Positions 2,011-48,594 of a stretch of 64,000 nt of DNA are shown here, in pieces. The notes beneath the pieces are model-generated. The model saw only the letters and a list, made by a program, of their open reading frames with translations. It was not told the DNA's origin and did not search any database. This stretch comes from Roseateles sp. Its GTDB lineage: Bacteria > Pseudomonadota > Gammaproteobacteria > Burkholderiales > Burkholderiaceae_C. The DNA is taken from assembly GCF_039595295.1 (NCBI RefSeq), contig NZ_JBCNLU010000023.1, forward strand, positions 2,665 to 66,664, written 5' to 3'. Numbering within the stretch: the stretch's first letter is position 1; every line of letters begins with the position of its first letter. Position numbers and translations under genes: made by a program.

Positions 2011-2034
2011 ATGACCCGCCCACAAGGATCGTCC

Positions 2035-2655
2035 ATGACCCTCCGACCTTTGCTGGCCTCGACGGCCTTGCCGACCTTGATCGCCCTCGCGTCGCTGACG
2101 GCGCTCACGGCGCTGGCGGCGCTGCCCTCACTCGCTCATGCCGAACCCGACATCCGCGTCGGCTTCTCGCCCGAGGGCTCGGCGCGGCAGCTGGTGCTGG
2201 TGACGATCGGGAGCGCCCAGCGCAGCATCCAGATCCTGGCCTATGCCTTCCAGGCGCCAGACATCATGCAGGCGCTGGTCGACGCGAAGCAGCGTGGGGT
2301 CGAGGTGCGCGTGGTCGTCGACAAGAAGCGCAACCAGAACAAGACCAGCCGCAAGGCGATGGACTTCGTGGCCCGACACGGTGTAGAGCTCCGCACCAAC
2401 GACCATTTCCACATCCACCACGACAAGACCGTCATCGTCGACGGGGAAACTGTCGAGACGGGCTCATTCAACTTCGCGCCGTCGGCGGAGACGCTCAATT
2501 CCGAGAACGTCGTCGTCATCCGCAACGCGCCCGAGGTCGCGCGCCAGTACCTCGCGCACTGGCAGTCGCGATGGAACCTCGGGCAGCCGTATGCTCCGGC
2601 CCCGACCGATTCGCCGAATCAGAAGCAAGACAGCAAGCCCAGGGAGAAGCCATGA
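2035..2655 (+). CDS. Secreted Nuc-type phospholipase D-family endonuclease (single HKD motif)
   Basis: Signal peptide ending AHA; VGFSPEG, AYAF, HIHHDKTVIVDG...GSFNF..NSENVV; AAGGA RBS upstream. Confidence 0.85.
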   Translation: MTLRPLLASTALPTLIALASLTALTALAALPSLAHAEPDIRVGFSPEGSARQLVLVTIGSAQRSIQILAYAFQAPDIMQALVDAKQRGVEVRVVVDKKRNQNKTSRKAMDFVARHGVELRTNDHFHIHHDKTVIVDGETVETGSFNFAPSAETLNSENVVVIRNAPEVARQYLAHWQSRWNLGQPYAPAPTDSPNQKQDSKPREKP

Positions 2656-2849
2656 ATCCTCGCCTCAAACGCGCCGCCACGGCCGCCCTCTTCGCCGCGA
2701 TGGCCGTCGCCGTCGGTCCGGCCTCCGCCGACTTCGATCCGAAGCGCTGCTATGAGAAGTGCATGGAGAAAGAGAAGGACCGCGAGAAGTGCGAATACGT
2801 CTGCGACTACAAGGGTTTGAGCCGGTGCGCCGACAGTCTCGCGCGCTGA
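2652..2849 (+). CDS. Small secreted cysteine-rich peptide (65 aa, CxxxC-x9-CxxxC)
   Basis: AGGGAG RBS; the ATG overlaps the nuclease TGA (ATGA); signal peptide MNPRLKRAATAALFAAMAVAVGPASA; mature DFDPKRCYEKCMEKEKDREKCEYVCDYK...; G/C-ending codons. Confidence 0.75.
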   Translation: MNPRLKRAATAALFAAMAVAVGPASADFDPKRCYEKCMEKEKDREKCEYVCDYKGLSRCADSLAR

Positions 2850-4282
2850 TCGCCGCGCTCGCGATCGCCGCGCTGAGCGGCTGCTCGACTTACCGACCCT
2901 GGCTGAATGCCGGCCTGCCGCCGAGCGCCGACGGCACGCCCCCTGCGGCGCCTGTCGCACCGCGCCGTCCCTCGGGGCCGGTCGTTGCGGCGGTGACCTT
3001 GTCGGGGGGCGGCGCGCGTGCCGCCGCCTTCGGCCTGGGCGTGCTGCGCGAGCTCAAGGCAACGACCTTCACCATCGACGGCCAGCCCACGACCTTGCTG
3101 GACCAGGTCAATCTGGTGAGCGGCGTGTCCGGCGGCAGCATCCTGGCGGCGCATTACGCGGCCTTCGGCGACGAGACGCTGACCCGCTTCGAGCCCGACT
3201 TCCTGATGCTGCCCTTCGAGGCCGGCCTGATCCGCCAGGCCTTCGCGCCGGCGCGGCTCTATCACCTGACCTCGCCCTGGTACGGCCGCAGCCACATCCT
3301 GGCGCAGCGGCTGGACGAGCTCTATCAGGGCCGCACCTTCGCCGACCTGCGCGCGCGTCCGAACGCGCCCGACCTGATGGTCACCGCGACCGACCTGACC
3401 ACCGGCACGCCCTTCGACTTCACGCCCGAGCAGTTCGGCCTGATCTGCTCGGACCTGGACCGAACGCCGCTGTCCTTCGCGGTCGCGGCCTCGTCGGCGG
3501 TGCCCATCCTGCTGTCGCCGATGACGCTGCAGAACCACGCCGGCGAATGCGCGCCCGGTCCGGCGCCGCGCCCCTCGCCCAGCACCGGCGACGACTACCG
3601 CACCCGATTGCTGGCGCTCAGCGCGCAGAGCTACCGCGACGCCAAGGAGCGTCCCTTCATCCATCTGGTCGACGGCGGCGTCTCCGACAACACCGGCGCG
3701 CGGCTGCTGCTGGACCGGCTGCTGGCGGGCGGATCGATCGCGACCTCCTTCAAGGACGCGCCGCCCGGATCGATCCGTCGCATGGTGCTGATCACGGTGA
3801 ACTCCGAGCGCGATCTGGCCGAGCGCATCGACGCGAGCGACAAGGTGCCCACCACCGGCCAGGTGATCGAGACGCTCATCTTCGGCGCGGGCGCGCGCGA
3901 GACCCAGGTCACGCTGGCGATGCTCAGCGACGACCAGCGCCGCTGGCAGGAAGAGCTGATGCGCACGCGCGGCACGCCGGGCAGTCCCTTCGCGGCCGAT
4001 GCGGAACTGCAGATCGTCAGCGTCAGCCTGCACGACGTGCCGGACGACAAGATCCGCCACAGCCTGCTGCGCGTGCCAACCGCGTTCACGATCGAAGCGC
4101 TGGACGTGCGCGAGCTGCAGAAGGCCGGCGCGGAGGCGCTGCGCTCGTCGGCGGCGTTCCGGAAGGTGAAGGAGGGGCTCGCCCGGTTGGGCGAGCCAAC
4201 GCTCACCCCACCTGCGGCTGATACCGCTCCAGCCAATGCGCATACGGCGCCGGCAGCACCCAGGTCGGGCGCTCCTTCTTGA
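2825..4282 (+). CDS. Patatin-like phospholipase, lipoprotein
   Basis: Lipobox LSGC; SGGGARAAAF, GVSGG nucleophile and DGG motifs; GTG start at 2825 inferred. Confidence 0.85.
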   Translation: MRRQSRALIAALAIAALSGCSTYRPWLNAGLPPSADGTPPAAPVAPRRPSGPVVAAVTLSGGGARAAAFGLGVLRELKATTFTIDGQPTTLLDQVNLVSGVSGGSILAAHYAAFGDETLTRFEPDFLMLPFEAGLIRQAFAPARLYHLTSPWYGRSHILAQRLDELYQGRTFADLRARPNAPDLMVTATDLTTGTPFDFTPEQFGLICSDLDRTPLSFAVAASSAVPILLSPMTLQNHAGECAPGPAPRPSPSTGDDYRTRLLALSAQSYRDAKERPFIHLVDGGVSDNTGARLLLDRLLAGGSIATSFKDAPPGSIRRMVLITVNSERDLAERIDASDKVPTTGQVIETLIFGAGARETQVTLAMLSDDQRRWQEELMRTRGTPGSPFAADAELQIVSVSLHDVPDDKIRHSLLRVPTAFTIEALDVRELQKAGAEALRSSAAFRKVKEGLARLGEPTLTPPAADTAPANAHTAPAAPRSGAPS

Positions 4283-44392: not shown

Positions 44393-44998
44393 ATGAATGA
44401 ATCCCAACTGACCGAAGTCTTCGGCAGCATCGGCCGCTTCCGTGTGCTGCGAGCGCTCTTCGCCGAGCCGGCTCGTGGTTTCGGTCAGCGCGAGTTGGCG
44501 GCGGAGGCGGGGACCGACGTGGGCAGCGTGGCCCGTTGGTTGCGGCGGTGGGTCGCGGCAGGGTTGGTCTCGCGGCGGCAGCAGGATGGATTGCCTCGCT
44601 ATCAAGCGAGTCCCGATCCATCGCTCGCGCCGCTGGTGGCGCTGATGCAGCAGGACAGCCGGCTCGTTGAGACATTGAAGGAGGCGCTGCAGCCCTTGAA
44701 GGGGGTACAGGTCGCTTTCGTTTTCGGCTCGGTCGCGCGCGGTGAAGCGGGTGCCGACAGTGACATCGACGTCCTCGTGCTGGGAAGTTTGTCGGAACTC
44801 AAGGTGAACGTTGCTTTGAAGCCCGCGGCTCGCGCGCTCGGCCGCGAGGTGCATGCGACGGCCTCTACGATTTCCGCCTTTCAGGAACAGCTTCGTGGCG
44901 GGGAGAGCTTCGCGCAAGACATCGCGCGAGGGCCGCGAATACCCTTGATGGGGGATTTCGATGCCGAAGTCATTTCAGGAGCTGGCGGCCCGGCCTGA
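44393..44998 (+). CDS. Winged-HTH + minimal nucleotidyltransferase (MNT) fusion, putative antitoxin/repressor
   Basis: N-terminal wHTH (RVLRALF...QRELAAEAG...VARWLRRW..AGLV); FGSVARG...DSDIDVLV. Confidence 0.85.
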   Translation: MNESQLTEVFGSIGRFRVLRALFAEPARGFGQRELAAEAGTDVGSVARWLRRWVAAGLVSRRQQDGLPRYQASPDPSLAPLVALMQQDSRLVETLKEALQPLKGVQVAFVFGSVARGEAGADSDIDVLVLGSLSELKVNVALKPAARALGREVHATASTISAFQEQLRGGESFAQDIARGPRIPLMGDFDAEVISGAGGPA

Positions 44999-45428
44999 GG
45001 CGCCTCTGAAGCCGCTGGCGGTCAATGCGCGAGACGTGGTGCAGTGGCTCAACCAGGCGCAAGCCAAGTTGCAGGACGCGCGCCACCCGGCGATCTCCAA
45101 TGGCACGCGCATGGACGCGGCATGGGATGCGGTGCTGCTGTCCTGCATGGCCGTCGCGTGCGCCGAGGGGTGGCGCATCACGAGTGATCGAGGTCACCAC
45201 GCGGTGGCGTTGGAAGGCGCGGCGCACGAGCTGGCGATCGGCGAGCGCCGCTTCGATGAACTGGACATTCTTCGCGACTGGCGCAACCGGAAGTACCGGC
45301 CCGGCTACATGGTCGAAGGCGATGAACTGAGCGAGGCGCTGGAGTGGGTCGCGCCCTTTCTTGCGGACGTCGCGACCTGGTTTGATCGGAAGCATCGCGC
45401 GCTCATCCAACGTGGGCTGGCGCGCTGA
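44961..45428 (+). CDS. HEPN-like protein, putative toxin partner
   Basis: All-helical; RMDAAWDA, GHH, LRDWRNRKY; overlaps the MNT gene by 38 nt. Confidence 0.7.
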   Translation: MPKSFQELAARPEAPLKPLAVNARDVVQWLNQAQAKLQDARHPAISNGTRMDAAWDAVLLSCMAVACAEGWRITSDRGHHAVALEGAAHELAIGERRFDELDILRDWRNRKYRPGYMVEGDELSEALEWVAPFLADVATWFDRKHRALIQRGLAR

Positions 45429-45496: not shown

Positions 45497-46132
45497 ATGA
45501 ACCGATTCCCCAAGCCGTCGAGCGCGCCTCGCCTGCCGCTCGATGCCGTGATGTTGCTGGTGCTGGTCCTGGCCGCCTGTGGCGGCGGGGGCGGAGACGC
45601 GCCTCCCGTGGCAACGACGCCCACGACACCGACCACCCCGACCACTCCCACGACCCCGACCAATCCGACCACGCCGCCTGCCGTCGTCGGCACTTGCGAC
45701 CTGCCCAACTTCCAGCAGGACCTGCTGACTCGTATCAATGCGTTGCGGGCAGCGGGCGCAAGCTGTGGGAGTTCCGGGACCTTCCCTCCCACCACGGCGC
45801 TGAGCTGGAACATCAATCTGACCAACGCCGCCGATGCGCACGCGCTGGACATGGCGACGAAGAATTACTTCAGCCATGACAGCCAGGACGGGCGCTCGTT
45901 TGCCGATCGCATCACCGCCGCCGGCTACAGCTGGAGCGCGGCCGGCGAGAACATCGCCGCCGGGCAACCCACCGTCGAATCGGTGATGAGCGCGTGGATC
46001 AACAGCCCCGGGCATTGCGCGAATCTGATGTCGGCGAGCTATGTCCATGTGGGTGTCGCGTGCCGACCGGCTGCGTCGACGTCGAACTCGTACTCTAGGT
46101 ATTGGGTCATGGACCTCGCGAAGCCGCGCTGA
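45497..46132 (+). CDS. CAP/SCP-domain lipoprotein with (TTP)n linker
   Basis: Lipobox LAAC; INALRAAG..C, AADAHA.DMA..NYFSH, GENIA, WINSPGHCANLM. Confidence 0.9.
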   Translation: MNRFPKPSSAPRLPLDAVMLLVLVLAACGGGGGDAPPVATTPTTPTTPTTPTTPTNPTTPPAVVGTCDLPNFQQDLLTRINALRAAGASCGSSGTFPPTTALSWNINLTNAADAHALDMATKNYFSHDSQDGRSFADRITAAGYSWSAAGENIAAGQPTVESVMSAWINSPGHCANLMSASYVHVGVACRPAASTSNSYSRYWVMDLAKPR

Positions 46133-48336: not shown

Positions 48337-48351
48337 ATTAAACTCCCGGCC

Positions 48352-48594
48352 ATGGAACTCAAGATCGTCGTCTACTCCAAGTCCGCCTGCCCGCAATGCG
48401 ACACGGCGAAGATGCTGCTCAAGTCGCGCGGCATGCCCTTCCAGGAGATCCTGATCGACGACGAGGCCGAGCGCCTCGCCTTCTACGAAAAGTGCGGCCC
48501 GGCCGTGCGCCAGATGCCGCAGGTCTTCATCAACGACCAGCGCGTCGGCGGCGTTACCGGCCTGCAAGCCGCGCTCAAGCAGCTCGGCCGCTGA
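48352..48594 (+). CDS. Glutaredoxin
   Basis: VYSKSACPQC; QMPQVFIND..VGG. Confidence 0.9.
   Translation: MELKIVVYSKSACPQCDTAKMLLKSRGMPFQEILIDDEAERLAFYEKCGPAVRQMPQVFINDQRVGGVTGLQAALKQLGR

Follow-up and report, generated by a model that had tools for sequence, protein, structure and literature searches.

A displaced member of a family of putatively exported twin-CX3C micro-proteins linked to a TonB-dependent receptor in Burkholderiales

The closest functional precedent in bacteria for the protein considered here is provided by CutF and CruR. CutF has a Sec signal and a CxxxC copper-binding motif and is required immediately 5' of its target (PMC9973294), and CruR heads a TonB-dependent receptor (TBDR) operon (PMC9426467). 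In the copper storage proteins Csp1 and Csp3, cysteines of the CXXXC type are carried on alpha-helices, point into a helical bundle and bind Cu(I) (PMC5171941). The alpha-hairpinins of plants are recognised by the cysteine motif C1X3C2X4-20C3X3C4 (PMC11591084). Here we describe a gene for a putatively exported micro-protein with a C-x3-C-x9-C-x3-C framework, located at 2652 to 2849 on the plus strand of a 64,000-nucleotide stretch of DNA (the window) from Roseateles sp. (contig NZ_JBCNLU010000023.1, positions 2,665 to 66,664), between a gene for a secreted Nuc-type nuclease and one for a patatin-like phospholipase. The analysis presents this protein as a stray member of a narrowly distributed, TBDR-linked family, with no nuclease or lipase partner.

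The micro-protein and its family

The gene comprises 65 codons plus a stop and is supported by its translation, by its base composition, by public gene calls and by the family profile described below. The 65-residue precursor is MNPRLKRAATAALFAAMAVAVGPASADFDPKRCYEKCMEKEKDREKCEYVCDYKGLSRCADSLAR, and a Shine-Dalgarno sequence (GGGAG, 2642 to 2646) lies 5 nt before the ATG at 2652. Residues 1 to 26 (2652 to 2729) have the character of a Sec signal peptide for signal peptidase I, with a basic n-region (R4, K6, R7), a hydrophobic core and a canonical cleavage site between ASA and D; we infer that the protein is exported by Sec and cleaved after the ASA that ends at residue 26. Inspection of the sequence revealed no lipobox. 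Cleavage would release a mature peptide of 39 residues (DFDPKRCYEKCMEKEKDREKCEYVCDYKGLSRCADSLAR, 2730 to 2846) in which 10 basic and 10 acidic residues give a net charge of 0. The core of this peptide, C33-x3-C37-x9-C47-x3-C51 (2748 to 2804; CYEKC-x9-CEYVC), is predicted to form a helix-loop-helix. It is followed by a lineage-specific C-terminal tail, GLSRCADSLAR (2811 to 2849), that overlaps the ribosome-binding site and start of the patatin gene and carries a fifth, unpaired cysteine (C59, 2826 to 2828).

GC content at the first, second and third codon positions of the micro-protein open reading frame (ORF) is 0.59, 0.50 and 0.83, a pattern shared with the flanking genes and not found in the other frames. 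Six-frame translation of the window yields two occurrences of the exact cysteine motif, where shuffles lead one to expect 0.05. Since the motif is also conserved in homologues, these results point to more than a chance ORF. As had been observed from the sequence alone, the ORF list shows this frame only as the tail of a 592-residue ORF with a TTG start (1071 to 2849). The accompanying prediction that standard annotation would miss the gene was mistaken, as the exact protein is already recorded in NCBI, UniRef, ENA and Logan, and a variant differing by one or two residues is held by JGI as a 'hypothetical protein'. A word-index protein search returned a single homologue, the 67-residue metagenomic protein P0002 (locus L001), which is 74% identical to the window micro-protein. 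Over the 54 alignable codons of the two genes the ratio of non-synonymous to synonymous divergence (dN/dS) is 0.16, with 18.3 of 37 changes non-synonymous against 29 expected (binomial P = 3.8e-5), and dS between the two lineages is approximately 1. In the codons of the mature core (27 to 54) the proportion of non-synonymous sites changed (pN) is approximately 0.06 and the synonymous counterpart (pS) approximately 0.55 (P = 2e-4). A strain variant from run X29 shows six differences in the micro-ORF, five of them synonymous and the sixth an A11V replacement in the signal peptide. The micro-ORF is a genuine gene under purifying selection, and the exported micro-protein with a signal peptide and a CxxxC-x9-CxxxC arrangement that a sequence-only reading of the window had proposed is borne out by translation, by GC content at third codon positions and by dN/dS.

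The rest of the family was accessible only to an exhaustive profile scan, because the word-index search had yielded the one homologue and a direct search of the GTDB representative genomes with the 65-residue protein gave zero matches. When a two-sequence profile was run exhaustively with HMMER against 1.84 billion representative proteins, 13 further proteins of 48 to 112 residues were identified, and a profile search of a 5.8-billion set identified 29 clusters, all labelled 'hypothetical' and none with a Pfam domain. Overall there are approximately 35 related clusters from Burkholderiales, the named carriers being Undibacterium, Rugamonas, Massilia, Rhodoferax, Roseateles and Pelomonas. Applied to the window, the family hidden Markov model recovers the micro-protein with an E-value of 7.7e-20 as the sole family copy there. 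The family signature consists of a signal peptide followed by (F)DPKxCYxxCMxxxxDxxxCxx[IV]C. In alignments of 15 and 33 sequences C33, C37, M38, C47 and C51 never vary, Y34 and D43 hardly do, and D29, K31 and I/V50 are strongly conserved; a signal-like N-terminal segment and the nine-residue spacer are present in all 33 of the larger set. The homologues that the earlier reading had suggested looking for do exist, then, and their cysteines do not vary. The window protein has D29, K31, C33, Y34, C37, M38, D43, C47, V50 and C51, and has Glu at position 41, which is hydrophobic in the family. Mature peptides of the family have 27 to 55 residues, of which approximately 55% are charged, and their net charge ranges from 0 to +3. 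Most members end 2 to 6 residues past C51 in a short tail rich in K, D and E, such as DKK or KDD; a few have other, unrelated extensions, and the longer tail with a fifth cysteine is limited to two Mitsuaria forms.

Family members gave only sub-threshold matches to Pfam and NCBIfam. One of these, to T4_Spackle, falls on the signal peptide and was rejected as an indication of family membership. A second, to DUF3551 (PF12071), was obtained for the window protein alone among the 33 (14.5 bits, E 0.039) and was rejected against a gathering threshold of 26.5 bits. A search of the literature found no described bacterial twin-CX3C system and no described system of a TBDR with a glutaredoxin (Grx). 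Judged by these alignments, the micro-protein belongs to a previously unnamed Burkholderiales family.

The receptor operon and a proposed periplasmic function

The genomic context of the family was assembled from 17 non-redundant loci outside the Mitsuaria patatin locus. An orthologous TBDR directly adjoins the micro-gene in 16 of the 16 informative loci, the seventeenth lying on a contig (1.4 kb) that is too short; the 16 receptors are 36 to 65% identical to one another. Between or beside these two genes, in 11 loci, is a gene for an anchored Grx-like protein of approximately 120 to 141 residues, composed of an N-terminal membrane anchor and, after it, a glutaredoxin-like domain whose CxxC is CPHC, CQYC or CAAC. 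Seven loci also encode a second exported cysteine-rich micro-protein just 5' of the receptor (L103, 2110 to 2280; L106, 2042 to 2224; L108, 765 to 932; L116, 2040 to 2204; L117, 2062 to 2223; L121, 2276 to 2419; L123, 3640 to 3777). This protein has 45 to 60 residues, a signal peptide beginning M[FL]RRL and the pattern C-x3-C-x3-C-G-x8-9-C-x3-C(-x-C), and has no Pfam match. Receptor, anchored Grx-like protein, twin-CX3C micro-protein and second micro-protein make up a four-gene module. In most loci the family micro-gene is the last of the operon, 3' of the TBDR and Grx genes, the window, L111 and L122 being the only loci where it precedes its neighbour. The other flanks vary among loci and include CorA, ATP synthase, toxin-antitoxin genes, MsrPQ and others. 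Neither Nuc nor patatin adjoins any TBDR-linked family member in the 17-locus table. The native home of the family is an operon around one orthologous TBDR, usually with the anchored Grx. A family new to Pfam and NCBIfam is thus tightly linked to one TBDR subfamily and to a dedicated Grx-like protein that probably faces the periplasm.

The relatives of the window's organism retain the TBDR-linked form. In Roseateles chitinivorans P47 (L122) the micro-gene is followed by the TBDR gene; in Pelomonas sp. CA6 (L123) the order is Grx, micro-gene, second micro-protein and TBDR, with a family core, AEFDPKECYRKCMEHVKDREKCEYICYGKK, that is 76% identical to the window core; and in Roseateles sp. BYS180W (L124) a variant of 81 residues lies between Grx and TBDR. 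This variant, with an expanded loop and two extra cysteines, falls outside the 33-sequence alignment. The window copy is a displaced family member and its position beside the nuclease and patatin genes a recent accident.

Several individual loci merit description. The family member of Pelomonas sp. CA6 (MDSRIRKKTAALLFLWLATAFGLAYAEFDPKECYRKCMEHVKDREKCEYICYGKK, 3465 to 3602) is uncalled in the public record, where a 91-residue ORF on the opposite strand (3441 to 3716, minus) has been called instead; proteins with mature forms of approximately 27 to 40 residues are routinely left 'hypothetical' or, as in this relative, uncalled. Approximately 330 nt 5' of the same operon there is a 54-residue gene fragment of the CsoR/RcnR type (PF02583), a hint from one locus only that was not used as evidence. 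In one metagenome-assembled genome (L105, 3835 to 4881) an IS605-family OrfB/TnpB gene occupies the place of the Grx-like gene between the TBDR gene and the micro-gene. In Rugamonas aquatica (L112/L113, 5001 to 5315) the 104-residue protein P0036 joins the anchor and the start of the domain of the Grx-like protein (as far as C-A-D-C) to the mature domain of the micro-protein. This fusion suggests that the anchored Grx-like domain faces the periplasm. P0036 may have been generated by a deletion, or it may be a 'Rosetta-stone' fusion that links the two genes functionally.

AlphaFold2 predicts, from either alignment, antiparallel helices at residues 30 to 40 and 44 to 54 (predicted local distance difference test scores of 77 to 87). 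As these modelled helices bear the four cysteines, the two CxxxC helices of the sequence-only reading are supported by the prediction. D29 and D43 would then act as helix N-caps, with Y34, M38, position 41 and I50 forming a mini-core. The mature peptide is proposed to adopt a very small helix-loop-helix fold once in the periplasm, with C33 and C37 on helix 1 opposite C47 and C51 on helix 2. By analogy with CS-alpha/alpha peptides and twin-CX3C proteins the oxidised pairs would be expected to be C33-C51 and C37-C47. The redox state of the micro-protein would be set by the Grx-like partner or, alternatively, in Mitsuaria by the general Dsb system, and the hairpin could be a redox shuttle, carry a thiophilic metal or bind to the receptor. 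Given that the native home is a TBDR/Grx operon, the most likely function is that of a thiol- or disulfide-based periplasmic accessory of TonB-dependent uptake, to which we assign a probability of roughly 55%. That the micro-protein handles metal specifically, which would agree with the metal binder among the roles suggested by the sequence-only reading, is a tentative proposal and clearly the less probable of the two. If the module does handle a metal or a redox-active nutrient, it would extend TonB-dependent uptake by a periplasmic accessory of a new kind.

A number of observations weigh against this interpretation. The positive-inside rule gives an ambiguous topology for the Grx-like protein. 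No characterised protein closely related to the receptors emerged: they gave only generic, sub-cutoff matches to NCBIfam, and nothing in the PDB was closer to them than the Cir plug (E 5e-6). No riboswitch was found for the TBDR operon, and the search for Fur or Zur boxes produced none that is convincing, the best candidates matching 12 to 14 of 19 to 23 positions in AT-rich DNA. The conserved non-cysteine residues of the micro-protein can all be explained structurally and leave no evident ligand site. The 64-kb window contains no TBDR of the family type and no anchored Grx, and the micro-gene stays beside patatin in both of the Mitsuaria lineages that carry it. Finally, low-depth contigs over 2624 to 3093, with starts at approximately 2624 to 2653, from three runs that are probably RNA are weak evidence of transcription of the micro-gene, as the run type was guessed and DNA carry-over is possible. 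The only glutaredoxin in the window is an ordinary cytoplasmic one (approximately 48340 to 48594). One C-x5-C pair and two His are conserved among the receptors and do not inform on substrate, and a scan of GTDB with the L111 TBDR, for which the search patterns were over-specific, gave zero matches. It is possible that in Mitsuaria the micro-protein has acquired a new local role beside patatin.

In the window, L111 and L122 the micro-gene directly precedes or overlaps the gene that follows it, which together with the CutF (PMC9973294) and CruR (PMC9426467) precedents raises the possibility of an exported cysteine-motif sensor or leader peptide of the CutF/CruR type, in which co-translational export and metal binding would control the downstream gene (patatin in the window, the TBDR in L111 and L122). 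We consider this quite unlikely. DUF2946 is unmatched at E <= 1 in 33 of 33 members, there is no proline-rich or RAPP C-terminus (the window tail being GLSRCADSLAR), and in most loci the micro-gene is the last of its operon. There is no stable stem-loop at the patatin ribosome-binding site (2770 to 2880; z = +1.57), where folding is equalled or bettered in 191 of 200 shuffles, and the strong purifying selection over the whole of the helical core points to a folded product.

A bacteriocin-like role had also been put forward from the sequence alone, and a secreted antimicrobial peptide that is a structural analogue of the alpha-hairpinins or kappa-hefutoxins would indeed share the C-x3-C-x9-C-x3-C framework, the predicted helical hairpin, the small size and the expected stabilisation by disulfides. 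However, the mature peptides of the family, with the charge described above, are zwitterionic and neither amphipathic nor strongly cationic, and a Sec signal alone delivers only to the periplasm. Furthermore, no locus contains dedicated exporter, immunity or maturation genes, and the consistent partners are instead a TBDR and a Grx-like protein. A role of this kind is accordingly judged very improbable.

A last possibility is that the micro-gene is in Mitsuaria a decaying relic of the TBDR operon gene and is functionless now. Its usual partners do not adjoin it, position 41 is Glu and the tail has been reshaped by deletion, all of which might be expected of a relic. Against this, dN/dS is 0.16 overall, with a pN of approximately 0.06 in the core at a dS of approximately 1 between the two lineages; the Shine-Dalgarno sequence, start codon, signal peptide and all of the invariant residues are intact; and there are the covering contigs from the three runs that are probably RNA. 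Decay to a functionless relic is the least probable of the explanations considered and we give it very little credence.

The accessory of TonB-dependent uptake preferred here may be elaborated into a more speculative proposal, which we regard as possible and do not favour over its alternatives taken together. The family might mark an undescribed four-part periplasmic module consisting of TBDR, anchored Grx-like oxidoreductase and two cysteine-rich micro-proteins. In one version the hairpin would be a minimal thiolate carrier, a 'mini-Csp' or Cox17-like chaperone that handles Cu(I) or another thiophilic metal; in the other it would relay disulfides for a redox-active substrate that is imported. 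The Mitsuaria lineage would then have taken over a copy that stands by itself and has one more, unpaired cysteine, and put it to a new use next to patatin.

Local history beside the nuclease and patatin genes

In the window the micro-gene is preceded on the same strand by a gene for a LysR-type regulator (1081 to 2010), the stop of which abuts the start of nuc. The nuc gene (2011 to 2655, plus strand) encodes a secreted endonuclease of the phospholipase D (PLD) family with a single HKD motif and its own signal peptide, and matches Pfam PLDc_2 (E 3e-28) and Salmonella Nuc (1BYR, E 2e-54). The ATG of the micro-gene overlaps the TGA of nuc in an ATGA (2652 to 2655). Downstream is the gene for a patatin-like phospholipase lipoprotein (2825 to 4282, plus strand; Pfam Patatin E 3e-20), with a GTG start and an LSGC lipobox. 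GTG 2825 is most likely the true start, as the N-terminus from this codon, MRRQSRALIAALAIAALSGC, includes the lipobox and public gene callers share it. This start lies inside the micro-ORF, giving an overlap of 25 nt.

Comparison with two related loci provides an account of how these overlaps came about. In L001, which encodes P0002, the order is aminotransferase (minus strand), LysR, micro-gene, a 115-nt spacer and patatin, with no Nuc, and the micro-gene is preceded by AGGGAGA at the same 5-nt spacing as in the window. In Mitsuaria chitosanitabida (L043), which is syntenic with the window at 88 to 89% nucleotide identity on both sides, LysR is followed after 148 nt by patatin and there is no micro-gene. 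L001 and L043 have a common LysR stop context, CACGGnTGAGG (alignments A4 and A5), and a common leader of approximately 110 nt 5' of patatin that the alignment shows to be deleted in the window. Because these two features are shared by L001 and L043, the ATGA coupling and the 25-nt overlap are, on the alignments, recent by-products of a nuc insertion and a spacer deletion. The differing LysR stop context of the window fits a later insertion of nuc, which sits there between LysR and the micro-gene. The last 20 or so codons of nuc run through the leader of the micro-gene: CGTATGCTCCG and the Shine-Dalgarno sequence are common to the end of the window nuc and the Nuc-less L001 leader, and Nuc homologues elsewhere cease to match at residue 194 to 198 or thereabouts. 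The ancestral patatin GTG, preceded by TTGAGCCG, is now inside the window micro-ORF because the spacer between the two genes has been deleted. For the fifth cysteine two alternative DNA alignments of the P0001 and P0002 genes, P0001 being the window protein, are about equally good.

A micro-gene between LysR and patatin is found in one Mitsuaria sub-lineage only. It is absent by motif scan or tblastn from 47 of 47 loci with patatin orthologues (Roseateles, Mitsuaria, Pelomonas and others) and from 41 of 41 loci with Nuc homologues. Because it is absent from all other species at the patatin locus, its gain in an ancestor of the window and L001 lineages is more parsimonious than its loss from L043. 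A conserved linkage with Nuc or patatin was rejected on the same counts.

These results bear on the idea, also contained in the sequence-only reading, that the micro-protein is tied functionally to its neighbours. A periplasmic inhibitor, immunity factor or activator of the adjacent Nuc or patatin would be consistent with the ATGA and 25-nt overlaps, with the export of all three products and with the location of the micro-gene directly 5' of patatin in both Mitsuaria lineages that have it. Yet the locus of the closest homologue has no Nuc and parts the micro-gene from patatin by 115 nt, the overlaps arose by insertion and deletion, the micro-gene is in 0 of the 47 patatin and 0 of the 41 Nuc loci, and the TBDR-linked members have a receptor and not Nuc or patatin for a neighbour. 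We therefore consider a partnership of this kind unlikely. The ATGA and the overlap with the patatin start are themselves present as first described, and what does not hold is that they represent an ancestral arrangement. A translational overlap can be a recent by-product of insertion or deletion and is not in itself evidence of functional partnership.

Other features of these loci were noted. The 3' ends of the patatin ORF (stop 4282) and of a convergent ORF for a flavin mononucleotide (FMN) oxidoreductase of the Old Yellow Enzyme type (stop 4203) overlap by 80 nt (4203 to 4282). The Old Yellow Enzyme gene was considered as a syntenic link from the window to the Pelomonas TBDR locus and rejected, as the genes at the two loci are only 27% identical and not orthologous. 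In L001, L095 to L098 and L101 a shorter patatin (467 to 473 residues) is followed by a 146-residue gene product with a SocA_Panacea domain; since the relatives have this arrangement, the window lineage appears to have lost the SocA_Panacea gene and lengthened its patatin. Thirteen assemblies (L024 to L036) with unrelated genus labels, among them Pantoea, Buttiauxella, Pseudocitrobacter, Stenotrophomonas, Pseudomonas monteilii, Massilia, Pseudochrobactrum, Pseudolabrys, Paracidovorax and others, have identical match statistics over their 9.4-kb patatin loci and share the same six-frame motif hit, a pattern suggestive of one contaminant common to these public assemblies or of an element that has spread among them very recently. 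Elsewhere in the window, two overlapping ORFs of 201 and 155 residues (44393 to 45428) resemble a toxin-antitoxin pair, and a nucleotidyltransferase-like GSxxRGE...DxD motif in the former suggests the MNT/HEPN type. Close by, 45497 to 46132 encodes a predicted lipoprotein of 211 residues with an LAAC lipobox, a (TTP)n linker and a C-terminal domain whose sequence pattern recalls the CAP/SCP/PR-1 family.

Comparison with known systems

The resemblance to plant alpha-hairpinins such as EcAMP1 and MBP-1 that was initially proposed holds for the framework and not for descent. The micro-protein is similarly small and its cysteines fit the motif C1X3C2X4-20C3X3C4 with a spacer of nine (PMC11591084), and it would share the predicted helix-loop-helix and, if the expected pairing holds, two inter-helix disulfides. 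No alpha-hairpinin appeared among the PDB sequence matches at E <= 10, there was no Pfam match and there is no sequence homology to the plant peptides. The alpha-hairpinins are cut from vicilin-type or multi-module precursors and are typically cationic, whereas the bacterial protein has a single-module Sec precursor, is zwitterionic and belongs to a family encoded in a TBDR operon. The best PDB sequence match of the micro-protein was instead to the scorpion toxin OmTx1 (kappa-KTx/hefutoxin), at a non-significant E of 0.7, and Pfam Toxin_25 was matched by 5 of the 33 family members, the window protein not among them, with a best E of 0.0038 that is far under the usual curated cut-off. Aligned with one another, CYEVCLQQHGNVKECEEAC and CYEKCMEKEKDREKCEYVC show the identical C-x3-C-x9/10-C-x3-C spacing of the micro-protein and the OmTx1/2 toxins. 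The blocking of K+ channels by these toxins is irrelevant in the bacterial periplasm, and the matches are most naturally read as convergence on a minimal fold. The likeness to both the alpha-hairpinins and the scorpion kappa-toxins is one of fold, not homology.

A further analogy may be drawn with the mitochondrial small Tim (twin-CX3C) and twin-CX9C proteins (Cox17, Cox19), which, like the form predicted for the micro-protein, are helical hairpins with two disulfides between paired CXnC motifs. These fold in an oxidising compartment that may be considered equivalent to the periplasm, where the Grx-like protein could take the part of the oxidoreductase Mia40, and some of the twin-CXnC proteins handle copper. 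In the small Tims the spacer is of 11 to 16 residues. With a spacer of nine and a mature size of only 27 to 39 residues the micro-protein differs from them, chaperone-type hexamers are unlikely, and it has no Pfam match to Tim10/DDP or CHCH.

In common with CutF and CruR the micro-protein is small and has a Sec signal and a CxxxC/CXXC motif, and it belongs with the metal-homeostasis or TBDR operons of Pseudomonadota in which those proteins are found (PMC9973294, PMC9426467). In contrast to both, it is usually encoded at the 3' end of the operon, and it is apparently a folded protein under selection. A purely hypothetical dimer of the hairpin would form a four-helix bundle lined with 8 Cys and 2 Met, by analogy with Csp1 and Csp3 (PMC5171941). 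The micro-protein would be a known type of structure, an alpha-hairpin pinned by disulfides, in a biological setting that is new. If the module handles a metal or a redox-active nutrient, bacteria would have in it an equivalent of the hairpins that disulfides pin in the mitochondrial intermembrane space.

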